A program made the translations under genes and the position numbers. 43,407 nucleotides of DNA, taken from positions 1 to 43,407 of IMG/VR virus record IMGVR_UViG_3300037424_001991; one strand, written 5' to 3'. Below the pieces are notes generated by a model, which was not told the DNA's origin, searched no databases, and worked only from the letters and a program-made list of their open reading frames with translations. Shown here in pieces: positions 6,481 through 43,407 of the stretch (its first letter is position 1; each line of letters opens with the position of its first letter). The DNA comes from a virus. Lineage: Duplodnaviria > Caudoviricetes.

Positions 6481-8388
6481 ATGGGAACAACACAGGAATA
6501 CACCATGCCGGTTGAGCTGACGAAGATAATAAAGCCAATGCCGGCGGGCCTGATCAGGCTGATAACTCTCAAACAGCTGAACACTCAAGCCTATTGGGTG
6601 CGGCCGGTGATAACCGGAGCCCGACCCGGCGTTTGCCCATGTTGCGGCGCGGTCCACCCCATGGCTGCCCACGGAGTATGCGGCGGCTGTTACGAACCCG
6701 CCATCAAAAAAGGCCTCTTTGGCCCTGCCTTGCTGGACCATCTGGCTCACCGGGCGAAATGCGGCAAGAAGATTAGGCCCTCGGGGCCCAAAGCGATCAG
6801 TGGGGAAAAAGTGTACGCCATGGCGCCTGCACTGGCATCGGTTTTGCGGCCGATGTCGCAGGCCGAGGCCGAGACGGCGACCCTCGCCGGGTTGATGAAG
6901 TTTTGGCGCCGCCCTTTAATCAAGCATAGCCAGGTGAGCGCCTGCCCGTGCTGCGGAAAGCAAAGGGCTCTGAAATGCCGTGGGCTATGCTCCGGCTGTA
7001 ACAGCGACAAGGTGGCGAAAAACAATCTTACTGGTCTTGCCCTGTTGCATCATCTATCCCGCCGCGCCAACCATGGACACACAGCCCTGGTGGAATGGCC
7101 TGGCCAGATATTGAGCCAATTCATCGAGGCGGAATGTACACTCTCTCCTCCGCGATCGGTGCTTGTCGCGACCCTTTACTCAGCTTTCTGTCTTTGGCAC
7201 GAGGACAACCTCGACAAAGGACCCCGGCCAAGCCTAAAAGCTTTCGATCACATGATCATGGGTGGCGAGCAGAGTGAGCTGAGTAGAGAATCGTGGCCCG
7301 TAAAGAAAGAGCAGAGAGAAGGCAAATACCATTACTCGGGTATCTCGCTTAAATGTGACCTCAAGGAATCCATCAGCCCGGCTCCGGAGTCGCCATCTCC
7401 TGCGGCTACCCCCCTCGCCGGGGCCGGGCAGGTGGAGTGTAAAGAGCAACAAGCCGCTGGCTTGGAGGGCGTTGCTGTGGCAGTCGCCATTCGCATTGCC
7501 CTGGGGCTCGACATCAAAACGTCGGTGCGGGATCTGCCTGCCCTTGTTGGCAAGCTCGTCGCTGACGTGAAGCACCATAAAGAACAGCATTTAATGCTGG
7601 ATGAGTCCTACTGCAAAGTTTCGATTGCGCTTGGGGCGGCAGAAAACGAACAACTCCCCACTATTGCTACCCTCCGCATGAAAGAGCTGGCCACCACCAA
7701 CGCCAAGGTGGCCGAACTCACCCAGGAGGTCGCCAGCCTGAACCGTCTGCTTGCGAAAACACCCATGGACGGCTTGGCCGAGGCTGCGGAAGAGCAGGGC
7801 TTTTCTTGGAGTGCGGCCGCCGCGCTGATGTCCATCTGCACTGCCCTTTGCCTCGACCAGCAGACGCCCCTGGAAGAGATCGTCAAACACATCGGCAGTC
7901 TTGTGGAACAGCGTGACATGCTGGAGCAGGAGTCGCGGGCTGTCGCCATTGCCCTGTGTGCCGGAGAGGATGACAATCTGGCCCTGATCGCCCTCCGTGC
8001 GATGGACGAAGCACAAAAGGCGGCTTGCCTCTGCGCACCAGCCGCCACCGAGGAGGCAATCGTTGCCAAGTGGTCCGGGTTGCCGGTGCCTGATGGTTAC
8101 GAGGCCTTGACCGATGTTATGACCGACGCAATCCACCAGGCGGCTTTCGGCAAAGGGTTGGAGCGCCACGCCGACCACCGGCCATTCCACGAGCAGCCCA
8201 TCATGCGGGAGACTGAGGCTGTCGGCCTCGGGCACCCTGCAGGCCAGGCCCGCAAGAAGATCCTGGAGGCGGTGCGCTGCTGCGAGGATCACCCGGAGAG
8301 AGCCATCGCCGATCTGCTCGGCGCCATCAACTACACCGCCGCGCTGGTGATCGCCATCCGTGCCAACCGGGTTGAGCAGGCCGCATGA
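6481..8388 (+). CDS. Large mosaic early protein (two Cys4 zinc-finger repeats, winged-helix-like segment, coiled coils)
   Basis: AAGGAG RBS; CPCCG...CxGC occurs twice; FIEAEC...LYSAFCLW segment resembles the D5 C-terminal domain. Confidence 0.8.
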   Translation: MGTTQEYTMPVELTKIIKPMPAGLIRLITLKQLNTQAYWVRPVITGARPGVCPCCGAVHPMAAHGVCGGCYEPAIKKGLFGPALLDHLAHRAKCGKKIRPSGPKAISGEKVYAMAPALASVLRPMSQAEAETATLAGLMKFWRRPLIKHSQVSACPCCGKQRALKCRGLCSGCNSDKVAKNNLTGLALLHHLSRRANHGHTALVEWPGQILSQFIEAECTLSPPRSVLVATLYSAFCLWHEDNLDKGPRPSLKAFDHMIMGGEQSELSRESWPVKKEQREGKYHYSGISLKCDLKESISPAPESPSPAATPLAGAGQVECKEQQAAGLEGVAVAVAIRIALGLDIKTSVRDLPALVGKLVADVKHHKEQHLMLDESYCKVSIALGAAENEQLPTIATLRMKELATTNAKVAELTQEVASLNRLLAKTPMDGLAEAAEEQGFSWSAAAALMSICTALCLDQQTPLEEIVKHIGSLVEQRDMLEQESRAVAIALCAGEDDNLALIALRAMDEAQKAACLCAPAATEEAIVAKWSGLPVPDGYEALTDVMTDAIHQAAFGKGLERHADHRPFHEQPIMRETEAVGLGHPAGQARKKILEAVRCCEDHPERAIADLLGAINYTAALVIAIRANRVEQAA

Positions 8389-8639
8389 TCGATCCAACAT
8401 GGGGATTAACCGCTGCCAGTGTGATCGGTGCGGGATTGAACGCCATCGGCCGCCGTGCCGGGTTCACCGTCTGGATATTCAGCAACATAGGCTGGGTGGC
8501 CACCAATGCCTCCCGCGGCCTTTGGCCACAGGCCGCGCTCTTTACCGCCTACCTCGGATTTTCCGTGGTGGGCTTTTTCATGTGGTCGCCGCCGGCGGCA
8601 CCCAAGGAACAACCCGAGGTTCATCCTGATGCCCTTTAA
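8385..8639 (+). CDS. Small PnuC-like membrane protein
   Basis: Three hydrophobic segments; GFTVWIFSNIGW motif. Confidence 0.6.
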   Translation: MIDPTWGLTAASVIGAGLNAIGRRAGFTVWIFSNIGWVATNASRGLWPQAALFTAYLGFSVVGFFMWSPPAAPKEQPEVHPDAL

Positions 8640-8970
8640 CTCTGGCATGCTTCTGATAGATGGCCACCGCTTCCCGCAAGCCGATCCCTACGGGCATCCG
8701 CCGGGCCTCCTCGAGGCCTCACCGGTGCAGACCGTTCCGGTGGCCGTACATTCTCACAGGGTTTCGCTCCCCGCCGCCCCCCCCCTCCCCCTTTCTAAAG
8801 AAAGCAGCCCAAAGGTCCATGACGGTCGCGGGTCCTTTGGGGCGATAAAAGCCACACGGGTCAGCGAGCCCCGATTGTTGCGTGCGGGGAAAATCCATGG
8901 GGGGGTGGAATCGTGGAATCGTGTGTCTGGGGTTGCGGCTCTTGCAGAAATGTTGGGGAGGGCAGCGTGA
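8629..8970 (+). CDS. Hypothetical protein
   Basis: Fills the gap between coupled neighbours; GAGG before ATG. Confidence 0.4.
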   Translation: MPFNSGMLLIDGHRFPQADPYGHPPGLLEASPVQTVPVAVHSHRVSLPAAPPLPLSKESSPKVHDGRGSFGAIKATRVSEPRLLRAGKIHGGVESWNRVSGVAALAEMLGRAA

Positions 8971-9245
8971 TTAATTGCCCGCACTGCAATGCGACAGGTG
9001 CCACTCGGCACGGATATACCGGGGATGGTCGGCAGCGGATGCTTTGCCAGTCACCTGATTGCGGCCGGGTTTTTGTTTCAATGACTCTGCGGCCCCGGGT
9101 GAGCCAAACCGCGAAAGAGATCGCCGGGGAGCTGGCAGCCCAGTTGGGTAAGCCGCTCACCGCCGCGATTCTGGCCAAGGCCACCGGACTCAGTGAGCGA
9201 ACAATTTACGCATTGAAAGCAAAACAGGGGGCGGCTGGTGTCTGA
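8967..9245 (+). CDS. Zinc-ribbon + HTH DNA-binding protein (InsA-like fold)
   Basis: CPHC...G...GRQRMLC...CGRVF, then ILAKATGLSERTIY HTH. Confidence 0.7.
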   Translation: MINCPHCNATGATRHGYTGDGRQRMLCQSPDCGRVFVSMTLRPRVSQTAKEIAGELAAQLGKPLTAAILAKATGLSERTIYALKAKQGAAGV

Positions 9246-10899
9246 CGAACAACCGGAAAATAGCGGTGTCACCAATGATATGTCGGAGATCAGAAGGCTG
9301 AGCCAGGAGCGGGCCGAGGCGGAGCGCGAGGCCGCGAAGTCCGACAAACCTCAAGGGGTGGCGGGCCTTTCCCTTGATTTCATCGCCGAATGCCGAAAAA
9401 AGGATGAGCTGGGAGACTCTGAGCTCTATAGCGCCATTCATCGCGAAAGATTTGCGATGAATATTGACACCGAAGGCGTGTGGTACGCCTTCTCAGACCA
9501 TAGATGGCAGATAGACAAAAACAAATGCTGGGCACTTGCGGCGGTTGAAGATGTGGTCCAGGCCTACATTCGCGAGCTGGCAGACGTAGAAGAGAAGATA
9601 GCCAGCCTTGAGAGTGACGAAAACAAGAAAGATATCGTCAAAAAACTCAAAAATAAACGAAATGCGATAATTTCTCGGTGCAGTCGGCTCCGTAAGGGCC
9701 GGGGCCGAAAAAGCATGATCGATATGGCGACCTCGAACTCCAATCCGCTGGTTCTGTCCTATGATCGGCTCGACCAGGACCCATTTCTCCTGGGGGTGAA
9801 AAACGGGGTGGTGGATCTGCAAACCGGCGTTCTCCGTCCCGGCCGCCCGGGCGACTATATCACCATCGTCGCCCCCACCGAATACCTCGGCATTAAGGCC
9901 AAGTGCGATGCCTGGCGCCATTTTCTCCTCGAGGTCCTGGTAGACCAAGACACCATCGACTATGTCCAGCGGCTCCTGGGATATTCCATCATCGGCACCG
10001 ATCTCGGGGTCCGGGTCTTCCCCATCTTCTACGGGGAGTATGCCCAAAACGGCAAGGGCACCATCCAGTCAGTTGTTCTCTCGGTGCTCGGCCAAGTGGC
10101 GGGCACCATTCAGTCGGAGATGCTGATCTCCACTAAGTTCGCCAAGTCGGCCGGCAGCCCCACCCCGGAGATCATGGATCTCAAGGGAAAGCGCACGTTG
10201 TTCGCCAGCGAGACCGAAAAAGGCCAGCGCTTCGCCACCGCCGCGGTCAAGCGGTATGCCGGCGGCGATAAGCTCAAAGGCCGCGGTCTGCAGGATCGCG
10301 CCTTCACCGAGTTTCGCCCGAGCCACACCATGTTTCTGATCACCAATTACATGCCCCATGCCCAGGCAGACGATAACGGCTTTCACCTCAGGGCCAAGGT
10401 CATCCCCTTTCCTTTTTCCTTTGTCGAGGATCCGAAGGCGCCATACGAGAAAAAGGCGGACACAAAGCTTCAGGCGAAGCTCCTGGCAGAGGCCTCCGGG
10501 ATCCTCGGTTGGCTGGTTGAGGGGGCGCTCCTCTTCCAGCAGATGGGGCTGGCCACTCCGGACAGCATCAAGGAGCCGACCGCTGCGTACCGACGCGGCG
10601 AGGATCAGGTCCTCGATTTCGTGGAGGCCTGCTGCATCCTGGATCCAGACTTCAAGGAGAACGCCACAAATCTCTACACCACGTTCCGGATCTGGTGGCG
10701 GGAAAATATCAACAACACCCCGCCAAGCATCAGAAACTTCGGCGACGGGCTCAAGATGCATTTCAAAAAGGAGAAGAATGGCACGGTCACCTACTATGGT
10801 CTGCAGGTTAAGCCGGACCTTCTGGCGGCTGCTCTCAAGGCCGGAAAATCATCCGATTCAGGTGGCTCATGGGCTAACAATGGACAGTCTGGACAGTAA
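9238..10899 (+). CDS. P4/D5-family primase-helicase (D5_N + SF3 helicase)
   Basis: LGVKNGVVDLQTG, Walker A-like GEYAQNGKGT, FASE, FLITNYMP. Confidence 0.92.
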   Translation: MSDEQPENSGVTNDMSEIRRLSQERAEAEREAAKSDKPQGVAGLSLDFIAECRKKDELGDSELYSAIHRERFAMNIDTEGVWYAFSDHRWQIDKNKCWALAAVEDVVQAYIRELADVEEKIASLESDENKKDIVKKLKNKRNAIISRCSRLRKGRGRKSMIDMATSNSNPLVLSYDRLDQDPFLLGVKNGVVDLQTGVLRPGRPGDYITIVAPTEYLGIKAKCDAWRHFLLEVLVDQDTIDYVQRLLGYSIIGTDLGVRVFPIFYGEYAQNGKGTIQSVVLSVLGQVAGTIQSEMLISTKFAKSAGSPTPEIMDLKGKRTLFASETEKGQRFATAAVKRYAGGDKLKGRGLQDRAFTEFRPSHTMFLITNYMPHAQADDNGFHLRAKVIPFPFSFVEDPKAPYEKKADTKLQAKLLAEASGILGWLVEGALLFQQMGLATPDSIKEPTAAYRRGEDQVLDFVEACCILDPDFKENATNLYTTFRIWWRENINNTPPSIRNFGDGLKMHFKKEKNGTVTYYGLQVKPDLLAAALKAGKSSDSGGSWANNGQSGQ

Positions 10900-12597: not shown

Positions 12598-14390
12598 CTC
12601 CTGTCATCCTGAAATATCGTGAGCGCTTCCGCAAATCCCCGCAGCTCTCCATCAACTTCGGTGAGCTGGCCATTGATAATTTCGCCGGCGGCGGCGGAGC
12701 GTCAACCGGGATTGAGGCTGCCATCGGCCGTCCGGTGGATATCGCCATCAACCACGACCCAGTCGCCGTGGCCATGCACGAAGTCAATCACCCCGGCACG
12801 CGCCACTATCCCGCATCGGTGTGGGATGTTGACCCGCGCAAGGTTTGCGGGGGTCGTCCGGTTGGTATCGTCTGGTTCAGCCCGGATTGTAAGCACTATT
12901 CAAAGGCCCGCGGCGGAAAGCCGGTTGAAAAAAAGATCAGGAGTCTCGCCTGGGTGGCAGTGCGTTGGGCGGCTACGGTCAAGCCCAGGCTGATCGCCCT
13001 GGAAAATGTCGAGGAGTTTGTCACCTGGGGTCCGCTGGTTACAGATATAAACGGCGACTGCTACCCATGCAAGAAACGGAAGGGCCAAACGTTCCGGAGC
13101 TTCGTCAATGCGCTCCGCCGCCAGGGATATGAGGTGGACTGGAAAGAGTTGCGGGCCTGCGATTACGGTGCCCCGACCATCCGCAAGCGTTTCTTCCTGA
13201 TCGCCCGCTGCGATGGCCAGCCGATTGCCTGGCCGGAACCGACCCACGGAGATCCGAAAAGCGCTGCGGTAAAGAGCGGGAGGCTGAAGCCATGGCGGAC
13301 TGCCGCCGAGTGCATTGATTGGTCCCTGCCCTGCCCTTCGATATTCGAGCGCAAGAAGCCTTTGGCCGAGGCCACCATGCGGCGGATAGCCAAGGGGGTT
13401 ATGCGGTATGTGGTGGAGAGCCCAGAACCGTTCATCGTGCCGCTCACCCATCACGGAAAGCGGCAAAACCACAATATCAACGAACCATTCAAAACGGTGA
13501 CCGGCGCAAATCGCGGCGAACTGGCACTCGTAGCTCCAATTCTCACTGAACACGCCAATGCATCATCCCCGCGTTGTATGCCAATAGCGAGCCCGATGCG
13601 GACGCAATGTGCCCAGGTGAAAGGTGGACATTTTGCCATGGTTTCCGCCTTCCTCGCCAAGCATTACAGCGGGGTTGTCGGATCAGAATTAACCATGCCC
13701 ATCGGAACAGTGACCGGCATCGATCACCACTCCCTGGTTGCCGCCAGTGTGGTGCGCCATTTCGGAGAAAGCGTCGGCTCTTCTCCCGCCGAACCGGTCG
13801 GGACCATCACTGCCGGAGGCCTTGGCAAGACCGGGATTATCGCGGCGAATCTTGTCAGAAATTTCGGGAAAAGCTTCGGGGCCGATGCGGCAGGTCCGGC
13901 CTGTACCATCACCGGGAAAAGCAAAGACTCCCTGGTCACCTCTCACCTGGTCAAGCTGCGCGGCACCTGTAAGGACGGCCAGCCGGTAACCAAGCCGGCC
14001 CCAACCATCACCGCCAGCGGCACCCATGTCGGCGAGGTCCGGGCCTTCCTGATGAAATACTACGGGACGGATCAAGACCCCAAGCTGGTGGAGCCGCTCC
14101 ACACGGTGACCACGAAAGACCGCTTTGGCTTGGTTACCGTCAAGGGCGAGGAATACCGGATCGTAGATATAGGCATGCGGATGTTGTCTCCCCGGGAGCT
14201 GTACCGTGCCCAAGGATTCCCGGATAACTACATCATCGACCGCGATTCGCACGGCAAGCCCATCACCAAGACCGAACAGGTTGCCAAGTGCGGCAACAGT
14301 GTCTGCCCGCCAATCGCGGAGGCACTGGTGCGAGCGAACATGGCGGCGGTCGAGGTTATCGCTGTCGGAAACCCATCAGCCCGGGCTTAG
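12594..14390 (+). CDS. DNA (cytosine-5) methyltransferase
   Basis: DNFAGGGG (motif I), SPDC (IV), LENV (VI), RKRFF (VIII), GNSV (X). Confidence 0.93.
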   Translation: MTPVILKYRERFRKSPQLSINFGELAIDNFAGGGGASTGIEAAIGRPVDIAINHDPVAVAMHEVNHPGTRHYPASVWDVDPRKVCGGRPVGIVWFSPDCKHYSKARGGKPVEKKIRSLAWVAVRWAATVKPRLIALENVEEFVTWGPLVTDINGDCYPCKKRKGQTFRSFVNALRRQGYEVDWKELRACDYGAPTIRKRFFLIARCDGQPIAWPEPTHGDPKSAAVKSGRLKPWRTAAECIDWSLPCPSIFERKKPLAEATMRRIAKGVMRYVVESPEPFIVPLTHHGKRQNHNINEPFKTVTGANRGELALVAPILTEHANASSPRCMPIASPMRTQCAQVKGGHFAMVSAFLAKHYSGVVGSELTMPIGTVTGIDHHSLVAASVVRHFGESVGSSPAEPVGTITAGGLGKTGIIAANLVRNFGKSFGADAAGPACTITGKSKDSLVTSHLVKLRGTCKDGQPVTKPAPTITASGTHVGEVRAFLMKYYGTDQDPKLVEPLHTVTTKDRFGLVTVKGEEYRIVDIGMRMLSPRELYRAQGFPDNYIIDRDSHGKPITKTEQVAKCGNSVCPPIAEALVRANMAAVEVIAVGNPSARA

Positions 14391-14416
14391 GTAAGACAAC
14401 AAGAGGGGGAAAGGAT

Positions 14417-15601
14417 ATGACAATGCCAGCGGAGAAACGCATCAAAAAAGGGTTGTGGTGGGACCGCAACTGGCCAGTGCTGGAAGGCTGTACCCCGTGC
14501 TCGCCTGCCTGCGATAACTGCTTTGCCGCCGAGTATGCCCACCGTTTTGAGGGTTCGCTCCCGTATCTACGCGGGTTGACCACGCCGGAAGGCAAATGGA
14601 ATGGCACCGTGATCATGCGCCAGGATCAGCTTGACCTGCCTCTCAAGACCAAGAAGCCCACCGTCTGGTTTGTGGCCGAACGGTCCGATCTGTTCCATCC
14701 GTCGGTGCCGGTTGAATACCTGGACCGCATCTTTGCGGTGATGGCGATGTCTCCGCAGCACACCTTCATGGTGCTGACCAAGCGGCCGGAGCGGATGCGG
14801 GATTATTTCTCTGGGTGGGTCGGCGGCAGCAGGGAGGTAAAAACGTCCAGTCCGAATATTATGGGCGAATTGCGCTTGCCGTTTCCCAACCTCTGGCTTG
14901 GCGTCACCGCCGAAAACCAGGAGCAGGCAGACAAGCGCCAAAACTGTATTCTTGCCTCTGGACGCCACCCTGCCCGAATACCTGCGCTGGCACCAACTCA
15001 ACCGGGCCGCCAGCACCCATGCCGATGTCAAGCAGGCCATGCCCAAGATCATGCGGATCTTTGGCAAGCTCACCGTGGCTCAGATCAGGCCGGCGCATAT
15101 CACCGACTTTGTCGCCCTATAAAACTCGAGGATTTTGATAAAGAGCTTGGAGAGCCATATATTGGTCGAGACTATTTGCGTGTAATCCATGACCCAGTGC
15201 AGCAAGAAGATGTGCGCGGTCATATCGATTGGGTCATATGCGGTGGAGAATCAGGCAACAAGGCAAGGCCGGTGCATCCCGATTGGGTGCGCTCTCTCCG
15301 TGATCAATGCGCCCACGCCGGTGTCCCTTTCCTCTTTAAGCAGTGGGGGGAATGGATTGAGTGTAGCTCTGATTCGACCGCCGCAAGATCGACGCCTCAC
15401 AGTGGGTATTGTTCGCCGATTGCCTACACCCCATTCAAAGAGCACCACAACTCCTGGTGTTATCAAGATGGGCGATGTAAATCAGCCAGGACGCTTGAGG
15501 AGGAGGGATTTTGTTTTGTTGCCAAAGTGGGCAAGAAAGCAGCCGGGCGCCTCCTGGACGGCAAGGAACATCTGGAGTTCCCCCGGGCCTTCGCATGCTG
15601 A
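14417..15601 (+). CDS. Phage Gp37/Gp68 (DUF5131)-family protein, interrupted in frame by an integrase-derived segment
   Basis: GCTPCSPACDNCFA, SDLFH, LTKRPER, WLGVTAENQ, DWVICGGESG, FLFKQWG. The usual SxEPLLG segment is missing and replaced by 14934-15118. Confidence 0.85.
   Translation: MTMPAEKRIKKGLWWDRNWPVLEGCTPCSPACDNCFAAEYAHRFEGSLPYLRGLTTPEGKWNGTVIMRQDQLDLPLKTKKPTVWFVAERSDLFHPSVPVEYLDRIFAVMAMSPQHTFMVLTKRPERMRDYFSGWVGGSREVKTSSPNIMGELRLPFPNLWLGVTAENQEQADKRQNCILASGRHPARIPALAPTQPGRQHPCRCQAGHAQDHADLWQAHRGSDQAGAYHRLCRPIKLEDFDKELGEPYIGRDYLRVIHDPVQQEDVRGHIDWVICGGESGNKARPVHPDWVRSLRDQCAHAGVPFLFKQWGEWIECSSDSTAARSTPHSGYCSPIAYTPFKEHHNSWCYQDGRCKSARTLEEEGFCFVAKVGKKAAGRLLDGKEHLEFPRAFAC
14934..15118 (+). 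repeat. Exact inverted copy of integrase-internal segment 1099-1283
   Basis: 185 bp identical to the reverse complement of 1099-1283, checked base by base. Confidence 0.97.
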
Positions 15602-16944
15602 AAATTGAAACCTGGCCCCTGGCCAAGATCATCCCCGACGAAAACCATCTGCGCAAGAACAACCACGCGGTGGGCAAGGTGGCCGAGGCCATTGCCACCT
15701 TTGGTTTCCGTGTGCCCCTTCTGGTGCGCAGCCCAGGCGAGTTGGTGGATGGTGATCTCCGCTATAAGGCTGCCAAGCTGCTAAAGTTTACAGAAGTGCC
15801 GGTCATCCTGGTCGACGATCTTTCCGATGCCCAGATCCGCGCTTTCAAAATCTCCGTCAACCGCATGGCTGACTTGGCAGAGTGGGATGAGGAGCTGCTC
15901 GCTGCGGAGCTACAGCGCCTCATGGACGATGGCTTTCCGGTGGAGCTGACCGGCTTCGATATGGACGAAGTCGACAAGCTGCTGGCCGGCCTGGTCGACA
16001 ACGAAAAAGACCCGGACCTCGCCCCGCCGCCTCCGGCTAATCCGGTAACAGAGCGCGGTGATCTGTGGATCATCGGCGATCACCTTCTCCTGTGCGGAGA
16101 CTCCACCTCCAGCGAAGATTTCACCCTACTCATGGCTTGCGAGACCGCCGATCTGGTCTGGACCGATCCGCCATACAACGTCGATTACAAAGGCAAGGCA
16201 GGGAAGATCCTCAACGACAAGATGAAATCTTCGGAGTTTTCCGCCTTCATGTGCCAGGTGTTTTCCTGCCTGGCTGCGATCATGGCCCCAGGGGCGCCCA
16301 TCTATGTTGCCCATGCCGACACGGAACGGCTCAACGTGCAGGGGGCCATGAATACTGCCGGGCTCAAGGTGGCCTCCTGTCTGATCTGGCGCAAGAATCA
16401 GATGGTGCTGGGCCGCGCCGATTACCACTGGCAGCATGAACCGATTCTCTACGGCTGGAAGCCAGGGAGTAGGCACAGCTGGCACGGTGGCCGCACCAGA
16501 CGCACCGTGTTCGAGCTGGATGGAGATCCGCAGGCAATGCGGATTAGCGACACCCAGATCCAGGTCAAGGTCGGGGATGAATTCCTGCTGGTCTCCGGTG
16601 AAAACCTCAGCGTGGACCGGTACTGCTCAACCATTGCCTGCGAGGACAAGCCCCTGCGCAATGAAGACCATCCGACCATGAAGCCGGTGGCGCTGATCGA
16701 GCGGTTCCTCGCCAACAGCAGCCGCCCGGGCAATGTCGTGGTGGATGCCTTCGGCGGCTCCGGCTCCACCCTGATCGCTTGCGAGATCCGCAAACGCAAG
16801 GCCAGGCTTATGGAGCTCGACCCGCGCTTCTGCGATGTCATCGTGCGCCGCTGGCAGGAATATACCGGCGGAATTGCAACTTTGGCTGGCACGGATGCCA
16901 GTTTTAATCAGGTGAAGGAACTCCGAGGTAAGGTGGATGATTGA
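15595..16944 (+). CDS. ParB-like N-terminus + DNA N6-adenine/N4-cytosine methyltransferase
   Basis: FGFRVPLLV, TDPPYN, HPTMKP, DAFGGSGST. Confidence 0.92.
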   Translation: MLKIETWPLAKIIPDENHLRKNNHAVGKVAEAIATFGFRVPLLVRSPGELVDGDLRYKAAKLLKFTEVPVILVDDLSDAQIRAFKISVNRMADLAEWDEELLAAELQRLMDDGFPVELTGFDMDEVDKLLAGLVDNEKDPDLAPPPPANPVTERGDLWIIGDHLLLCGDSTSSEDFTLLMACETADLVWTDPPYNVDYKGKAGKILNDKMKSSEFSAFMCQVFSCLAAIMAPGAPIYVAHADTERLNVQGAMNTAGLKVASCLIWRKNQMVLGRADYHWQHEPILYGWKPGSRHSWHGGRTRRTVFELDGDPQAMRISDTQIQVKVGDEFLLVSGENLSVDRYCSTIACEDKPLRNEDHPTMKPVALIERFLANSSRPGNVVVDAFGGSGSTLIACEIRKRKARLMELDPRFCDVIVRRWQEYTGGIATLAGTDASFNQVKELRGKVDD

Positions 16945-17695
16945 ACGCCTCCCCAATGAAATTCTTGACGCAGCCAGCAAGCCAGAGCAGGTCGAATACA
17001 CGATCCACTACAAGGCAGTGCTCAAGGCTGCCAAGGCCTATGGCGATGAACCATCCACCGCCAGGAAGAAGATCTGGGAAGAGTCGAAACGGTCATTGTC
17101 CGACCAGGAAGCGCATCTGATGGAAAAATACGGAAAGGAACAGGCCGCGCCGGACACCTTTGCCACCCAACAGGATGTGCTGGTCTACCTCAAGGCCGGT
17201 GGCTATAAGATCGAGAAGTCCGCCCTCTCGAACCATGTGCGGACCCGGCTGCTGATTAAGAAACAAGGGGTTTTCCGCCGCCAGGATGTGGATAAATACG
17301 CGGATCTCCATCTGCAGTCCGGAGCCACAGGCCAAAAAGCTGCGGACAAAAAGCTGGCCGGGCTGCAGGAGCGCAAGCTCAAAGCCGAAACCGACCGCAC
17401 CGAGGAGCAGGCGCGAAAGGCCAAGCTCGAGCGGGAGGCCATGGAAGGGAAAATGCTCCCGAGGGCCGATGTCGAGCTGGAGCTTGCCGCCCGGGCGGTG
17501 GTCATCGACTCCGGGATCAGCGGCCTTATCCAATCGCATGCCGCCACCTGGATCGACCTGGTCGCCGGCGACCAGGCAAAGCTCCCGGATCTCACCGAGG
17601 CCATGGCCAACAACTTTCGCACCCTGCTCAACGAATACGCCACCACCGATATCATCCGGGTGGTGCTCAATCGCGGCGGAAAAAGCGATGATTGA
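16937..17695 (+). CDS. terS: Terminase small subunit (Nu1-like)
   Basis: HTH-like segment followed by coiled coil ERKLKAE...KAKLERE..EGKMLPRADV; lies between the methylase and (beyond the integron) terL. Confidence 0.7.
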   Translation: MIERLPNEILDAASKPEQVEYTIHYKAVLKAAKAYGDEPSTARKKIWEESKRSLSDQEAHLMEKYGKEQAAPDTFATQQDVLVYLKAGGYKIEKSALSNHVRTRLLIKKQGVFRRQDVDKYADLHLQSGATGQKAADKKLAGLQERKLKAETDRTEEQARKAKLEREAMEGKMLPRADVELELAARAVVIDSGISGLIQSHAATWIDLVAGDQAKLPDLTEAMANNFRTLLNEYATTDIIRVVLNRGGKSDD

Positions 17696-17774
17696 CCCGG
17701 CTAATAAATATGCCACCGGAACAGTAAACCATCCCACCGGAAAACCGTTAAAACTCACCGGACCGCGCCAATGA
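17688..17774 (+). CDS. 28-aa linker ORF coupling terS to the first cassette gene
   Basis: Starts in ATGATTGA overlapping the terS stop and ends in ATGA overlapping the next start. Confidence 0.4.
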   Translation: MIDPANKYATGTVNHPTGKPLKLTGPRQ

Positions 17775-17828
17775 AACAGAATAAAAAACGCACAGATCCT
17801 CGCGGTCCGGTGGAGAGCTTTGTTAGCC
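17739..17828 (-). other. attC: attC site 4 (distal; R' box degenerate)
   Basis: Minus strand: GGCTAAC AAAGC TCTCCACC GGACCGCG...CGCGGTCC GGTGAGT TTTAACG GTTTTCC. Confidence 0.8.
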
Positions 17829-18571
17829 GTTCCGGTGCTGTGGTTGCCTCATACGGCGGAGGAACAAACAGCACTGCCATGATTATTGAATGGGTTGCCC
17901 GTGGTCTGCGATTGGATGCTGTAGTTTTCGCGGACACCGGGGCCGAGAAGCCAGAGACGTATGCTTTTGTTGATCTGTTTTCTGGCTGGCTGGTGCAGCA
18001 TGGATACCCTGCGGTGGTGGTTGTTCGTAATGACGGGATGCACGGCAGCCTGGAACGGGAGTGCTTGACAAATGGCCGGTTGCCGTCCGCCACTTTTGGG
18101 TTTTCGTCCTGCTCGGACAAGTACAAGTTGAGGCCGTTTCGTAAGTGGCTAAAGACCTCGGGCCTGGAAAACGTAACTGTGCTCCTTGGTTTTGACGCTG
18201 GAGAGCCGGGCAGGAAGTCACGGGCGCTGAAATATGCCAGCGGGTATGACAAGGTTTTTCCGCTGATTGAATGGGAGTGGAGCCGTGAGCGGTGCATTGA
18301 GGCCATTGACAATGCTGGCTTACCCCGGCCAGGCAAGAGCGCCTGCTTTTTTTGCCCCAACACCAAGCCCCATGAAATCTTGAAACTCCAGGCCTACCAC
18401 CCGGATCTGGTCGAACGGGCGATTGCGATAGAAGACAACGCTAGCCTCCGCAGCATTAAGGGCCTGGGGCGGGCGTGGTCGTGGAAAGATTTTATCTGTG
18501 CCGATGACGCACAGCAAAAAATGTTTGGCAGCGTTTGCATGGGGCAACCATGTGGATGCTACGACGGCTAA
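17771..18571 (+). CDS. PAPS-reductase-family (PP-loop) protein; cassette 4 gene, inverted
   Basis: SYGGGTNST, FADTGAE, YKLRP, FPLIEW, KSACFFCP. Starts inside attC4; its TAA stop lies in the next attC R' box. Confidence 0.85.
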   Translation: MKQNKKRTDPRGPVESFVSRSGAVVASYGGGTNSTAMIIEWVARGLRLDAVVFADTGAEKPETYAFVDLFSGWLVQHGYPAVVVVRNDGMHGSLERECLTNGRLPSATFGFSSCSDKYKLRPFRKWLKTSGLENVTVLLGFDAGEPGRKSRALKYASGYDKVFPLIEWEWSRERCIEAIDNAGLPRPGKSACFFCPNTKPHEILKLQAYHPDLVERAIAIEDNASLRSIKGLGRAWSWKDFICADDAQQKMFGSVCMGQPCGCYDG

Positions 18572-18655
18572 CGTGGCTGGTCACTTGCCAGCCGACAAAC
18601 TTGAATAACAAAAACCGCCGCTCCAACCTGGTCAAGTGCAGTAGCTTTGTTGGGC
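18566..18655 (-). other. attC: attC site 3
   Basis: Minus strand: GCCCAAC AAAGCT ACTGCACT TGAC...GGCA AGTGACC AGCCAC GTTAGCC. Confidence 0.88.
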
Positions 18656-18873
18656 GGCCTACCGAGGAGGAGATAAATGCAAACCGTAACGAGGAATCAG
18701 GTGTTGATGATGGCGGCTACAATATTTGCTGGGGTTGTGGCGAACCCTTGTATGGCAGCTATGGTTGCGGACCAGTACGCAAGGCAAAACTTACTGCAAC
18801 AGACTTTGTGGGATGTGCAAAATATGTTCACATCATCCGGTATCGAAATCGTTGAAGGTTGAGGCCGCCCAAC
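18569..18873 (+). repeat. 305-bp exact direct repeat, copy A (cassette 3); copy B at 19249-19553
   Basis: Identical sequence whose boundaries fall on the AAC/GTT recombination triplets. Confidence 0.96.
18677..18862 (+). CDS. Hypothetical 61-aa protein, cassette 3
   Basis: GAGGAGG RBS; fits between attC sites; AATIFAGVVANP hydrophobic motif. Confidence 0.7.
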   Translation: MQTVTRNQVLMMAATIFAGVVANPCMAAMVADQYARQNLLQQTLWDVQNMFTSSGIEIVEG

Positions 18874-18954
18874 GCCAGAACTCAGCGGGCCCGGCTCAGG
18901 ACCAGCCGGAACGCCGCGCACGTTTACCGGGTCCGATGGAGGGATTGGTTAACT
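18867..18954 (-). other. attC: attC site 2
   Basis: Minus strand: AGTTAAC CAATC CCTCCATC GGACCCGG...CCGGGCCC GCTGAGT TCTGGC GTTGGGC. Confidence 0.9.
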
Positions 18955-18957
18955 GTT

Positions 18958-19251
18958 ATGACTGACGCCGACATAAAAACTGAAACGTCTGACTCTCTGG
19001 CCGACCTCAGAATGAGAATTGTGGCAGAGTTGGCCAGACGAACAAAAGAACCGACCCAAAGATGTTGGGTTGTCCGCCTCAGTGGTTGTGAGAGCGGTGC
19101 GACGTTTTTTAAAAAATATGAAGAGGCTAAGACGGAATTTATTGATGAGGTCGATTTTACCGTGCGGGACACAGGAAATAAATATTCGTTAGAACCGCTC
19201 GAGATACCCACCTCTGATTATAATTCTAGGCCAGATCGTTGGTACAGTTAA
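18958..19251 (+). CDS. Hypothetical 97-aa protein, cassette 2
   Basis: Low-GC ORF filling the cassette; ATG 3 nt after attC2; TAA stop within the next R' box. Confidence 0.75.
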   Translation: MTDADIKTETSDSLADLRMRIVAELARRTKEPTQRCWVVRLSGCESGATFFKKYEEAKTEFIDEVDFTVRDTGNKYSLEPLEIPTSDYNSRPDRWYS

Positions 19252-19335
19252 CGTGGCTGGTCACTTGCCAGCCGACAAACTTGAATAACAAAAACCGCCG
19301 CTCCAACCTGGTCAAGTGCAGTAGCTTTGTTGGGC
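19246..19335 (-). other. attC: attC site 1
   Basis: Same as attC3 but R' = GTTAACT, donated by the neighbouring cassette as expected. Confidence 0.88.
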
Positions 19336-19356
19336 GGCCTACCGAGGAGGAGATAA

Positions 19357-19542
19357 ATGCAAACCGTAACGAGGAATCAGGTGTTGATGATGGCGGCTAC
19401 AATATTTGCTGGGGTTGTGGCGAACCCTTGTATGGCAGCTATGGTTGCGGACCAGTACGCAAGGCAAAACTTACTGCAACAGACTTTGTGGGATGTGCAA
19501 AATATGTTCACATCATCCGGTATCGAAATCGTTGAAGGTTGA
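19357..19542 (+). CDS. Hypothetical 61-aa protein, cassette 1 (duplicate of cassette 3)
   Basis: Identical to 18677-18862. Confidence 0.7.
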   Translation: MQTVTRNQVLMMAATIFAGVVANPCMAAMVADQYARQNLLQQTLWDVQNMFTSSGIEIVEG

Positions 19543-19546
19543 GGCC

Positions 19547-19607
19547 GCCCAACCACCGTTATAAAGCCACCACGGCGGTCTAACCCACCAGCCGCCGAGG
19601 GCACAAC
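19547..19607 (-). other. attI: attI site
   Basis: Minus strand TTTATAA-CGGTG-GTTGGGC (L box, 5 nt, R box) with no attC hairpin; upstream GTTAGAC and GTTGTGC direct-repeat-like boxes; 5' of intI. Confidence 0.75.
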
Positions 19608-19640
19608 CACCCCGCAAACCTTAACCGGGAGGGCAAAACC

Positions 19641-20648
19641 ATGAATCAGCCAGCACAGCAAACACCGCCGCAATCAACGCCCGACAATAACCCCCCCCGG
19701 CTCAAGGACCAGGTCCACGCCGTCTGCCGTCGTCGCTATCTTTCCCTGCGCACTGAAAAGTCCTACTGGCACTGGATTGTCGCGTTCTGCCGCCACTACC
19801 AGAATCAAGTCCACCCACGCGACATGGGCGACCAGGAGGTCACCGACTACCTTACCCATCTGGCCGTCAAGCGCGGGGTGGCGGCGGCTACGCAAAACCA
19901 GGCATTCAACGCCTTGCTCTTCCTCTACCGCGACGTGCTGGAAAAACCCCTCGGCAACGTCGACGCCATGCGGGCCAAGCGCACCCGGCGTCTGCCGGTG
20001 GTCCTCTCCCGGGATGAGGTCAAGCGGCTGCTCGGCAAGATGACCGCCGTCCACTGGCTGATCGCGTCGCTCCTGTACGGCTCCGGCCTGCGGCTCATGG
20101 AGGCCATGCGCCTGCGGGTGCAGGATGTGGATTTCGACCGCCGGCAGATCATCGTCCGCATGGGCAAGGGCAACAAGGACCGCGTCGTCCCCCTGCCCAG
20201 CGCCATCGTCGGCGAGCTGCAGCGCCACCTTGCCGCGGTCGAACGGCTTCACCAGCAGGACCGGGCCGACAAGATTCCCTGCTCCATGGAGCCGTCCCTG
20301 GCCCGCAAGTTCCAGCTTGCCCCTTACTCCTGGGGATGGTTCTATGTTTTCCCGGCTCGGCAGCGGGCCATCGACCCGATCTCCGGCAAGCTCAAACGCC
20401 ACCACCTGCACGAGACCGCGATCCAGAAGGCGGTGCACGAGGCTGCCCGGGCGGCCAAACTCACCAAGCGCTGCGGCTGCCACACCCTGCGCCACAGTTT
20501 CGCCACCCACCTGCTGGAGGCTGGCCGGGATATTCGGACCATCCAGGAGATGCTGGGCCACAAGGATCTCAACACCACCATGATCTACACCCATGTGATG
20601 AGCCGGGAGGCCATTGTCAGCCCGTTGGATATGGTGATCGGCGCATGA
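19641..20648 (+). CDS. intI: Integron integrase
   Basis: SLRTEKSY, AATQNQAFNALLFLY, YGSGLRLME, GKGNKDR, IntI-specific insertion (LARKF...WGWFYVFPA...DP.SG...RHH), HTLRHSFATHLL, LGH, TTMIYTHV, SPLD. Confidence 0.97.
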   Translation: MNQPAQQTPPQSTPDNNPPRLKDQVHAVCRRRYLSLRTEKSYWHWIVAFCRHYQNQVHPRDMGDQEVTDYLTHLAVKRGVAAATQNQAFNALLFLYRDVLEKPLGNVDAMRAKRTRRLPVVLSRDEVKRLLGKMTAVHWLIASLLYGSGLRLMEAMRLRVQDVDFDRRQIIVRMGKGNKDRVVPLPSAIVGELQRHLAAVERLHQQDRADKIPCSMEPSLARKFQLAPYSWGWFYVFPARQRAIDPISGKLKRHHLHETAIQKAVHEAARAAKLTKRCGCHTLRHSFATHLLEAGRDIRTIQEMLGHKDLNTTMIYTHVMSREAIVSPLDMVIGA

Positions 20649-22705
20649 TCCCCCACGCCGCCCCGCGCCAGATAACCATCACCACCCCCCCTCCCTGGAT
20701 CACGCCGGAGATCGCCGCCCGTCTTTCCTCCGGTCATGAGTTCCGCTTCTCCAAACCGGAGCGCAAGGTCTGGCGCAAAAAGAAGCTGATCCCCGCTTCC
20801 GACTGGGCCGAGCGCAACTTTATCCTCACCGACGGCCCCCTCAAGGGTAGCCGCTGGCGGCGGGAGATGGCGCCCTGGTCGGCCGGGATGATGGACGCCT
20901 CGTTTTTCCCGTCGGTGCGGCGGAACATAAACTGCAAATCGGTCCAGTCGGCCGGCTCCACCTACATCAGCGCCTGCCTCTGCTACGCCGCCGACCGCCG
21001 CCCCGGCGACACCATGATCATCATGCCCAGCCAGGCAGCGGCCCGCAAAAGGATCCAGGACCGGTTGATCCCGATGATCGAGCAAAGCCCGGTCCTGGCC
21101 GACCTGCTCACCGGCAAGGAAGACGACAAGGCCTCCTGCCGGGTCAAGCTGACTCATATGCTGATCTACGCCGGATGGGCAGGCTCCCCAACATCCCTTG
21201 GCGACACCCCGGCAAAGTATGTCATCAAGGACGAAGCCGACAAATGGACCGAATCGGATACCGCAAACAACGAAGCCAGCAGCCATAAATTGGCGGACAA
21301 GCGGGTGACGACGTTCGAGAATTCTTACAAAATGTGGGACAACTCGACCCCCACCGTCGAGTCCGGCCACATCTGGCAGGCCCTCCTCACCGAGACCCAG
21401 ATCATCAGCTCGTTTTGGGTCCGCTGCCCGGACTGCGCTACCTACCAGGTCATGATCTCCCGGCAAATCGTCTGGGAAGGAGGCACCGAGGCCAACCCGG
21501 TCAAGGTCGAGGCCGAGCGCCTGGCCGGTTACACCTGCCACAATTGCGGCTCCACCTGGGATGATCACCGCCGCAATCTCGCCGCCCAGGCCGGGGAGTG
21601 GAGAGCCCTGCCCACCGAAGGCTGGGCCGACCGCCTCGAAAAACTCAAATCAGGCGATCACACCGCCTTTGACGGCGCCATTGAACTTTTTGAATACCTC
21701 CGCAGCCACCGCCCGGAAACCATCGGTTTCCACACCCCGGCCTGGTTTTCCCGCTATGTCAGCCTCAGCAAATGCGCCGCTGCGATCATCCGGGCCGCAA
21801 CCTTGGGCCTCGATGAGGTCAAGGATCTGGCCAACAACTTTGCCGCCGAGCCCTGGCGTCAGGTGATCCAGCAGACCGCCGAGTCTGATATCCTCATGGC
21901 CCGCTGCGCCCTGCCCCCGCAAACCGTTCCTGCCCAGGCCGTGGCCCTGGTCTGTTTCATCGACATGCAAAAACATGGTTTCTGGTTCTGCGTCCGGGCC
22001 TTTGCCCGCGATTTCACCTCCTGGAACATCCACCACGGCCAGCTGCCGGACTGGGCCGAGCTGGAGGCCCTGCTCTTCGAGACCAGCTACCCGGTGCAGG
22101 ACTCAGGCCGGACGATGCGGATCTGGCGGGCCGGGCTGGACACCGGCGGCGGCAAGGACAAGGATGCCGATATCAGCCGCACCGAGGAGGCCTATTTCTG
22201 GCTGCGGAAAAACGGCCAGGGGAGAGGCTGCCGGGTATGGGGCACCAAGGGCTCCAGCACCAGGATTGCCGGGGGCCGCTTGCGGGTGGGCAAGCCCCTG
22301 GACAAAACCCCCAGCGGCAAGCCGTTGCCCGGCGGCCTGCAGCTCATCTTCCTCGACACCGACCAGCTCAAAGATGCTTTTCACTACCGGTTAGGCCAGA
22401 CCCTCACCGGCGGCCCCCAGGCGGCCTGGCTGCACAGCGAAAGCGGCAAAGACTACGCCCGGCAGATCGCCGCCGAGAAAAAACAGAAAAACCGGCAGGG
22501 GGTTGATGAGTGGATCAAAACCAGCAAAGACAACCACTATCTCGACTGCGAGGTGGGGTGCCTGGCCCTGGCTGATCCGGAGTGGCCGGGCGGCGGGGTG
22601 AATTTGCTGCTGCCGCCGGCGCCGCCCCGGACCCCGGAGAAAAAAAGAGAAGAAGACGGTTTTTCCATCGGCAAATTCAACAGACCGGAGTGGCTAAACA
22701 GATGA
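20645..22705 (+). CDS. terL: Terminase large subunit (lambda GpA family)
   Basis: KSVQSAGS (deviant Walker A), VIKDEAD, STPT, CPDC/CHNC, IDMQ, DTGG, NHYLDCEV. ATG overlaps the intI stop. Confidence 0.92.
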   Translation: MIPHAAPRQITITTPPPWITPEIAARLSSGHEFRFSKPERKVWRKKKLIPASDWAERNFILTDGPLKGSRWRREMAPWSAGMMDASFFPSVRRNINCKSVQSAGSTYISACLCYAADRRPGDTMIIMPSQAAARKRIQDRLIPMIEQSPVLADLLTGKEDDKASCRVKLTHMLIYAGWAGSPTSLGDTPAKYVIKDEADKWTESDTANNEASSHKLADKRVTTFENSYKMWDNSTPTVESGHIWQALLTETQIISSFWVRCPDCATYQVMISRQIVWEGGTEANPVKVEAERLAGYTCHNCGSTWDDHRRNLAAQAGEWRALPTEGWADRLEKLKSGDHTAFDGAIELFEYLRSHRPETIGFHTPAWFSRYVSLSKCAAAIIRAATLGLDEVKDLANNFAAEPWRQVIQQTAESDILMARCALPPQTVPAQAVALVCFIDMQKHGFWFCVRAFARDFTSWNIHHGQLPDWAELEALLFETSYPVQDSGRTMRIWRAGLDTGGGKDKDADISRTEEAYFWLRKNGQGRGCRVWGTKGSSTRIAGGRLRVGKPLDKTPSGKPLPGGLQLIFLDTDQLKDAFHYRLGQTLTGGPQAAWLHSESGKDYARQIAAEKKQKNRQGVDEWIKTSKDNHYLDCEVGCLALADPEWPGGGVNLLLPPAPPRTPEKKREEDGFSIGKFNRPEWLNR

Positions 22706-31418: not shown

Positions 31419-31518
31419 AGTGCGAAGTGCTGAGTGCTGAGTAAAAGAAAAGTGCCTCGTACTCGGCACTCAGCACTCGGAACTCAGCACTAAAAGAAAA
31501 GCACTCGAAAATCAGCAC
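31419..31518. repeat. Inverted heptamer array (AGTGCTG / CAGCACT)
   Basis: Core 31426-31495 matches 37038-37107 at 69 of 70 nt. Confidence 0.9.
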
Positions 31519-37016: not shown

Positions 37017-37107
37017 AAAAGTGCTGAGTGCGAAAAAAGTGCTGAGTGCTGAGTAAAAGAAAAGTACCTCGTACTCGGCACTCAGCACTCGGAACTCAGC
37101 ACTAAAA
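37017..37107. repeat. Inverted heptamer array (AGTGCTG / CAGCACT), second copy
   Basis: Near-identical to 31426-31495. Confidence 0.9.
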
Positions 37108-41815: not shown

Positions 41816-42928
41816 ATGGCAATCTACCCGGCAAAAATCACCCTCGACCCCCACACCCGAGGCGACATCTGGCTCGGCGGCATCCATTTCGGCCCGGTAA
41901 CCATCAACGGTGACCCCCCGGAAAACCCCATTGCCTCGGCCCGCCTCCAATTCCGCGACCCCCGCACCGCCAGGAAAGGGAAACGGAAAACCCTCTCTGT
42001 TTTGCGCTTTGAGCAAAACCTTGGCGCAAACCTCAGCCAGCTCCACCATGAGTTGCTGGCCGGAGAATACCGCCCGGCAGCACACCGGCAATTCTGGATT
42101 TACGAACCCAAGCCACGCCTGATTAAAGCCCCGACCTTCCGCGATGTGGTTGTCCAACACGCCATTTATGCCGTGATCAACCCGATTTTTGACCGTGGCT
42201 TTTTGCCGGACAGCTTCGGATGCCGGATCGGCAAGGGAACCCACCGGGCCAGCGACCAGGCGCAACGGTATCTCCGGCAGTCGCCGCCCGACAGCGTGAC
42301 GCTCCAGATGGATATCCGCCGTTTTTACTACCGGATCGACCGAGTGATCCTCAGGGTTTTGATCGAGAAAAAAATAAAGGACCGCAGACTGGTTGATCTG
42401 ATGATGGCCTTTGCCGAGCACGACGAGCCGCTGGGGGTTCCGATCGGCAGCTTGCTCAGTCAGCTCTATGCCCTCATCTACCTCGACCCGCTCGACCATT
42501 TCATCAAGCGGGAGATCAAGGCCAAGCGGTATGTCCGCTATGTGGACGACTTCATCGTGTTCGGCGTATCGCGGGACGAGGCAAAGGTAATCCGCCTGCG
42601 CATCGCCGCCTGGCTGGACGCTCATCTGAGTCTTGAGTTTTCCCGCTTCACGATCCATCCGGTGAAGCGGGGGATCAACTTTGTCGGTTACCGCACCTGG
42701 CGCCGGACCAAGTTTGTCCGCCGCCGAAGCATCCGCAATTTCCGCAAAAACCTGCGCCTTGGCAAGATAGCAAGCCTCATCAGCATCCTTGGCCACGCAA
42801 AGCCGACCGCCACTTATAAATATTTCACCCGCCAAATACAGGAGAACGGATATGGCAACAATCTATCGCTACCAAAAAATAACCACCCCCGGGCCAAACG
42901 GGACCACGGTGCAGCATCGCAACACTGA
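41816..42928 (+). CDS. DGR-type reverse transcriptase fused to ~50 aa of a tail-protein-like N-terminus
   Basis: ARKGKR, EPKPRLI, RDVVVQHA, SFGCR.GKGTH, DIRRFY, PIGSLLSQ (DGR signature GxxxSQ), YVRYVDD, FVGY. Confidence 0.9.
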   Translation: MAIYPAKITLDPHTRGDIWLGGIHFGPVTINGDPPENPIASARLQFRDPRTARKGKRKTLSVLRFEQNLGANLSQLHHELLAGEYRPAAHRQFWIYEPKPRLIKAPTFRDVVVQHAIYAVINPIFDRGFLPDSFGCRIGKGTHRASDQAQRYLRQSPPDSVTLQMDIRRFYYRIDRVILRVLIEKKIKDRRLVDLMMAFAEHDEPLGVPIGSLLSQLYALIYLDPLDHFIKREIKAKRYVRYVDDFIVFGVSRDEAKVIRLRIAAWLDAHLSLEFSRFTIHPVKRGINFVGYRTWRRTKFVRRRSIRNFRKNLRLGKIASLISILGHAKPTATYKYFTRQIQENGYGNNLSLPKNNHPRAKRDHGAASQH

Positions 42929-43289: not shown

Positions 43290-43319
43290 GTGTAGACCCT
43301 GCGTAGACACTTTTGTATT

Positions 43320-43352
43320 AAAAAGGGTTCTCGGAATTCACCGAAAACCCTT
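43320..43352 (-). terminator. Phage-supplied terminator for the reconstituted tRNA
   Basis: Minus strand AAGGGTTTTCGG-TGAATT-CCGAGAACCCTT followed by Ts. Confidence 0.6.
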
Positions 43353-43359
43353 GCTACCA

Positions 43360-43407
43360 TGGAGCCAACGAGCGGAGTCGAACCGCTGACCTACTGATTA
43401 CGAATCA
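43360..43407 (-). tRNA. tRNA-Thr(CGT), 3' part (right att site; 5' part presumably outside the window)
   Basis: Anticodon arm TGA-TTCGTAA-TCA, T arm AGCGG-TTCGACT-CCGCT, acceptor strand and CCA. Confidence 0.88.

Follow-up and report, generated by a model that had tools for sequence, protein, structure and literature searches.

A phage integron between terS and terL whose cassette genes run opposite to their attC sites

In integron theory, the asymmetry of attC exists to point genes away from the promoter Pc. In classical cassettes, the stop codon falls within the TAAC box that directly follows the gene. In inverted-integrase integrons, intI runs in the same direction as attC. Phage morons and accessory islands near the terminase consist of small, AT-richer genes among head genes. 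The part of Qi et al. (2023, PMC9892861) available to us describes phage-borne integrons and CALINs, with integron parts in phages and DNA methyltransferase cargo. The complete integrons described there are host-type captures with canonical genes, which we checked on L015, L017, and L018 (related loci are cited here by L numbers). The same text reports no reversal of genes relative to attC and no platform in a terminase operon. Reversed cassettes as a phage rule were not found in the literature covered, which leaves out most subscription journals.

The stretch of DNA analyzed here (the window) is 43,407 nt long and is a 43-kb temperate prophage. The phage integrase and repressor genes are on the minus strand at its left end. 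Replication, methyltransferase, head, tail, and lysis genes run rightward on the plus strand. A direct repeat of 94 nt is found at both window ends (269-360 and 43317-43407, 79% identity) and probably represents attL and attR. It resembles the 3' end of a tRNA, and a presumed cold-shock-like host gene opens the window. The host is likely Desulfobulbales-like; the closest named records are Desulfobulbaceae, Desulfurivibrionaceae, and Deltaproteobacteria MAGs. The window also contains a reverse transcriptase gene near the tail genes (41816-42928; phrog_1423, E 8.4e-93), possibly part of a diversity-generating retroelement. A 185-nt exact inverted duplicate (1099-1283 and 14934-15118) places a phage integrase piece within a DUF5131 gene and is either an insertion or an assembly artefact. 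A direct repeat of 71 nt with 98.6% identity lies at 31425-31495 and 37037-37107. ARAGORN found no tRNA genes in the window, and an Rfam scan of 17000-20500 gave 0 matches. Cumulative GC skew did not locate a replication origin, which bears on the idea of the bottom strand as lagging-strand template (after the accessible part of PMC5371416).

An integron with IntI, attI, and four attC cassettes sits between terS and terL. Its parts are as follows.

16937..17695, plus strand: terS, terminase small subunit (phrog_57, E 2.3e-10), upstream neighbor of the array
17740..17828, minus strand: attC 1, attI-distal, part of the PAPS-reductase cassette, from its sequence and its L067 and L068 homologs
17771..18571, plus strand: cassette 4 gene, PAPS-reductase-like phage accessory protein (PF01507; phrog_424, E 2.3e-37)
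18566..18655, minus strand: attC 2, travels with the 61-aa gene to its right
18677..18862, plus strand: cassette 3 gene, 61 aa, older copy (ORF with GAGGAGGAG ribosome site)
18867..18954, minus strand: attC 3, travels with the 97-aa gene (covariance model 18.4 bits; spacer score +32.4)
18958..19251, plus strand: cassette 2 gene (97 aa), with its stop inside the R' box that follows
19246..19335, minus strand: attC 4, identical to attC 2 from TAAC onward
19357..19542, plus strand: cassette 1 gene, attI-proximal exact copy of the 61-aa gene (305-nt exact repeat)
19547..19590, minus strand: attI (inferred), R box 19547-19553 and adjoining conserved core
19641..20648, plus strand: IntI, intact (TIGR02249, 399.4 bits against a cut-off of 265)
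20645..22705, plus strand: terL, GpA-type terminase large subunit (PF05876, PF20454)

The intact IntI lies 87 nt from the attI R box and rules out the CALIN class (attC clusters without an integrase). Over 317 aa it shares 44% identity with IntI1, and the alignment shows no long gap. It is a true integron integrase, in which the IntI-specific insert is present and the catalytic motifs are intact. Residues R150, H281, R284, H307, and Y316, which we take to be the catalytic ones, are invariant in five IntI family members. The attI core AAC-x-ACCG-x-TA is invariant in 9 of 9 aligned sites, and cassette ends match there. This core marks a putative attI between intI and the array, whose functional identity we infer from the sequence.

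The locus shares several parts with classical integrons (class 1 and the sedentary chromosomal integrons of Vibrio, Shewanella, and Desulfobulbales-like bacteria). These are a TIGR02249 IntI, attI at the intI 5' end, an attC top strand pointing away from intI, a bulged L box, and matched R'' and R' ends. It differs from them in that the phage genes are antisense to the attC top strand and no Pc-like site was found. In the phage, attC forms a 5' leader, the stop codon falls at the crossover end, and intI runs the same way as the cassette genes, its stop overlapping the terL start (ATGA). Since intI is on the plus strand and the attC top strand is the minus strand, the arrangement is not that of inverted-integrase integrons. 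Methyltransferases, PAPS reductase, and Lar-like proteins are typical phage families, as in morons. Unlike morons, the accessory genes here are bounded by attC and lie beside their own IntI and attI.

The cassette genes of the window are AT-richer (45 to 55% GC) than terS, intI, and terL (59 to 64%), and only the PAPS gene among the four has a family match. Its first ATG lies inside attC 1, with an alternative GTG at 17840, and its TAA stop is in the next R' box. The 61-aa protein has one homolog (92%) and a strong ribosome-binding site. The 97-aa ORF fills 99% of its cassette core and has no homolog but itself; this gene call rests on ORF fit. Weak atlas leads were obtained for the 97-aa protein (DUF5448/Eaf, 0.83), and the 61-aa protein likewise has weak leads only.

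Polarity of the attC sites was compared with 26 control attC from annotated arrays (class 1, Vibrio, Shewanella, and Pseudoalteromonas), whose orientation was taken from the genes annotated there. Unpaired attC bases sit on the R''-L'' arm, according to the accessible part of Bouvier 2009 (PMC2727003). In sites 2 to 4, the minus-top arm holds the unpaired L-box base; the bulge test gave 8.2 versus 5.3, 9.1 versus 8.1, and 8.2 versus 5.3 (minus versus plus). A spacer weight matrix, which was correct for 26/26 controls in leave-one-out, favored minus by +16.5, +32.4, and +16.5 bits. Sites 2 to 4 have the R''-L''...L'-R' layout of attC. In sites 2 and 4, the spacer is 6 nt long on each of the two arms; their lowest-energy DNA folds, computed from input coordinates 2 nt too wide, differ from the attC stem. 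A covariance model built from the 26 controls, which is small and has rough E-values, gave five matches in the window. All five were on minus and weak (best 18.4 bits, E 0.059); those at sites 1, 2, and 4 were partial, and one match fell outside the array. In relatives, 20/20 matches were on minus, and in L067 and L068, 8/8. The initial annotation had read the attC sites on the minus strand. Every model match in the window and its relatives agrees with that reading, with none on plus. The minus strand is confirmed as the attC top strand in the window, as is usual with a divergent intI.

Site 1 was missed by the scanner and has a non-canonical R' box (17740-17746). The PAPS cassette may therefore be locked in place, or may have been inserted at a secondary site. 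Polarity of site 1 was judged from its homologs in L067 and L068, which have a canonical core and score 27.3 and 25.9 bits on minus. Scanner-missed sites were added by eye (window 17735, L007 7089, L008 344, and L064 9252), and the hand-curated site lists omit weak scanner hits inside ORFs. One locus, L013 (Virus Rctr41k, KX853513), was excluded from all counts because its bulge and spacer tests disagree. It contains four attC-like sites (8415-10101) downstream of an intI-like gene, with bulge on minus, spacer on plus, and genes on plus.

The strongest polarity evidence lies in the cassette boundaries. An exact 305-nt repeat (18569-18873 and 19249-19553) spans the left attC and the 61-aa gene and ends at the right-hand AAC. 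Contig L001 has the 305-nt duplicate too; its proteins are identical to those of the window, and it is possibly not an independent case. The newest, attI-proximal position of the window thus holds a duplicate. A duplicate in first position is an outcome of copy-and-paste shuffling in classical integrons, in the part of Souque 2021 (PMC8024014) available to us. In the window, L008, L067, and L068, the left attC of the PAPS gene is homologous, and to the right of its stop these four have differing attC or attI. L069 has the same PAPS gene with another left attC. The five versions of this cassette move with the attC upstream of the gene. By their sequence, the ends of the duplicate and of the shared cassettes place the exchange at G|TT of the R' box. 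The R'' and R' ends agree over at least 7 nt in 37/43 cassettes (shuffled mean 2.8, maximum 9); by itself this match does not discriminate the two orientations.

The PAPS protein has 1110 homologs. Its gene differs from four relatives at 64 to 85 synonymous and 11 to 27 non-synonymous codons. This homology and mostly synonymous change support a real ORF. Four versions keep the in-frame ATG inside attC, across a 6-nt indel. Of the 80 best-matching viral loci that carry the gene, a minus-top site is adjacent in 8, a weak plus-top call was obtained in 2, and 70 have none. Since so few have an adjacent attC, PAPS is an ordinary phage gene that some lineages packaged as a cassette. It occurs in 4/401 genomes of the probable host order, twice as a reversed cassette beside IntI and twice without attC; none of the four is in a canonical array. 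One match lies beside IntI, terS, terL, and portal genes, and one is on what seems, from length and sequence, to be viral contig L069.

Gene strand was surveyed in 33 segments from nine loci that carry either an IntI of this clade or the attI that goes with it. Strands were called from a fit rule and family scans; a longest-ORF rule was too noisy on distant viral loci. By ORF fit, 22 segments were plus only, 5 both, 6 neither, and 0 minus only, so that no segment has its gene solely on the attC top strand as in classical cassettes. Of 26 control segments, 14 were canonical, 1 was reversed, and 11 fitted neither. PHROG matches were obtained for 14/67 plus and 0/57 minus ORFs (13/61 plus without six hand-added ones). 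Pfam matches were obtained for 12/67 plus and 0/57 minus ORFs. In the window, all four cassette ORFs are on plus, and the minus-strand ORFs of its cassettes have no Pfam or PHROG match. The initial annotation had proposed that the cassette genes are inverted relative to attC and co-directional with terS, intI, and terL. Both statements hold, with polarity on minus and the genes and their neighbors on plus. The cargo comprises DNA methyltransferases, PAPS reductase, a DHH phosphoesterase, a Lar-like protein, an FtsK-gamma domain, and small regulators, and it resembles ordinary phage accessory genes. DUF5131, which the window encodes as a fixed gene (14288-15601), is carried on a reversed cassette in L067 (2869-3591). 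Cassettes of two genes, one of them HTH or NikA-like, occur in L066 (6397-7090 and 7468-7925), L008 (391-1030), and L002 (1531-2074).

At distant viral IntI loci (33 of 45 collected), 92/96 chained sites were minus-top. ORF fit gave 20 plus, 3 minus, 2 both, and 42 neither (n=67), and PHROG matched 16/46 plus versus 1/50 minus ORFs. IntI was above cut-off in 169/301 genomes of the probable host order, from which we examined 21 loci chosen for long flanks. There, 37/41 chained attC point away from intI, as in the phage. ORF fit gave 7 canonical, 1 reversed, and 17 neither (n=25), compared with 22/33 plus only in the clade. Pfam matched 8/22 canonical and 0/13 reversed ORFs, with 5 of the 8 from one locus. 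These arrays hold toxin-antitoxin and other genes. Integrons of the probable host order are canonical, unlike the phage design. A phage-specific cassette pool had been put forward earlier; the PHROG split between strands and the canonical host-order arrays support a pool of phage type.

No minus-strand sigma-70-type Pc was found in 8/8 family loci (scan range 95 nt ahead of intI plus its first 300 nt, or 80 nt for L007). The same rule recovers the class 1 Pc in 2/2 controls and finds nothing in 2/9 host-order integrons. The absence of Pc is suggestive for the sigma-70 consensus that was scanned; the scan would miss a late promoter of phage-specific type if one lay between attI and intI. The window array has no promoter or terminator above chance in its layout, no plus-strand promoter-like site of at least 9/12, and no intrinsic terminator at the plus-strand attC hairpins. 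A LexA-type box was not found before intI. A stop-start overlap follows intI in 8/10 loci, counted by eye. The overlap of the intI stop with the terL start and the lack of promoters or terminators above chance make expression of the cassettes from the phage lytic transcript a fair reading of the gene layout. In L066, plus-strand promoter-like sites precede two-gene cassettes. The initial annotation had the newest cassette promoter-distal. Any gradient with position is unlikely to be steep, because that cassette is followed by intI and by terL, an essential gene, and strong polarity would be intolerable; position effects are probably mild. It also had the cassettes silent or antisense in a host integron. 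The geometry agrees, but not for all of them; the promoter-like sites of some relatives' cassettes suggest that not all are silent in a lysogen or host integron.

The intI-attI platform likely moves between phages, since IntI is 84 to 94% identical among phages whose TerL proteins are only 28 to 71% identical (L007 and L008 being fragments). Its position varies. It is found before terL, in the terL-portal gap (L066), or before a gene that we take to be HNH-like by its motif (L005). The array lies among head genes in the window, L002, L004, L064, L066, and L213. In a quick tree, seven intact members form one clade with 100% support, apart from 21 host-order integrases. Other IntI lineages (46 to 49% identical; L067, L069, and L213) also have reversed cassettes, and two of them share the PAPS cassette. 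The intI gene is broken in L006, L007, and L008, with deletions in L007 and L008. In L006, a cassette is joined at AAC inside intI (6752-6760), and attI and the first part of intI are missing. L065 (3871-4209) and also L003 contain a second attI-like site with a reversed cassette, downstream of terL and away from intI. A metagenome scan gave two short clade members, L127 and L129, without upstream arrays, and one contig that was already in the set.

We are fairly confident that this is a phage-resident integron whose genes are reversed relative to attC, with cassettes and intI likely in the rightward packaging operon and not driven by Pc. An upstream phage promoter would transcribe terS, the cassettes from oldest to newest, intI, and terL. 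IntI would recombine the usual bottom strand (plus here) and insert cassettes at attI. The attC would become the 5' leader of its gene and could supply the start codon. IntI would be made together with TerL and act in lytic growth. Progeny would then vary in accessory genes, such as those for methyltransferases and PAPS-reductase-like proteins. Given the geometry, a promoterless cassette moved from one pool into the platform of the other would lie antisense there.

Expression outside the lytic operon is unlikely. Here the reversed cassettes would have their own promoters or act as lysogen morons, and intI would be under a separate promoter. The L066 sites fit this, since they precede cassettes encoding HTH or NikA-like regulators, and so does the AT-richness of the window cassette genes. 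Against it, the window array lacks such sites, and the array lies among head genes in six loci. Capture of a host chromosomal integron piece, with the reversal a host-lineage trait or chance, is very unlikely. IntI is common in the order, captures by Vibrio phages are described in the accessible part of PMC9892861, and single reversed cassettes exist in bacterial arrays (1/26 controls). The host-order arrays are nevertheless canonical, with toxin-antitoxin and other genes. The phage IntI clade stands apart from all 21 host-order integrases, and the PAPS gene is rare in the order and absent from its canonical arrays.

We give still less credence to canonical plus-strand cassettes (gene, then attC), which would mean that the polarity call is wrong or that the integrase prefers the other strand. 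In 25/43 cassettes the gene is followed at once by a TAAC box that contains its stop codon, as this reading expects. The boundaries largely refute it, however. The duplicate includes its left attC and excludes the right one, and the left attC of PAPS is constant in four loci while the right neighbor changes. In addition, attI and intI are on the right, and the model matches are all on minus. Least probable of all is the insertion of whole cassettes backwards by top-strand recombination (Nivina et al. 2016). That reaction is described in the part of PMC5027507 available to us, but it turns a gene and its attC around as one unit. Here attC faces attI normally while the gene by itself is reversed, and the same cassette is reversed in several phages. 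Backward insertion is refuted by this anatomy.

Beyond the phage-resident integron with reversed genes, a more tentative proposal, which we regard as rather doubtful, is a mirror-image phage integron with its own pool. In it, the reversal would be a firewall, and reversed cassettes would be born by DNA recombination without an RNA step. Promoterless host cassettes, anti-phage ones included, would be antisense in the phage, and phage cassettes would be antisense in the host. Host integrons store anti-phage cassettes that are switched on in first position, according to the accessible part of 10.1101/2024.07.02.601686, and this is a possible reason for the reversal. In cassette birth, an attC upstream of a phage gene would recombine with the TAA-C stop of the gene as a secondary site. 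A frame of at least 40 codons ends in the R' box TAA in 25/43 cassettes, with the PAPS and 61-aa cassettes counted more than once, and 29 boxes have TAA. These crossover stops, the one gene with two attC types, and the L006 junction are the basis of the model. The AAC junction inside intI, with attI lost, is the outcome that an attC-by-secondary-site reaction predicts. Excision at nearby genomic sites is reported in the part of 10.1101/2022.09.11.507474 available to us. By itself the birth model leaves the 7- to 12-nt match of R'' and gene end unexplained, and this DNA-only route is speculative.

Every callable gene of the clade is reversed, and the clade's own IntI and attI lie within the head operon, so the machinery of integrons could serve a phage transcript. 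The same machinery could diversify phage progeny in each lytic cycle. This points to two pools of cassettes, able to recombine with one another but lacking cross-expression. Phage cassettes are likely silent in a host integron unless they carry their own promoter. Annotation that assumes an order of gene, then attC, would assign each of these attC sites to a gene it does not belong to. If true, the DNA-only birth model would offer a testable route to how cassettes arise.
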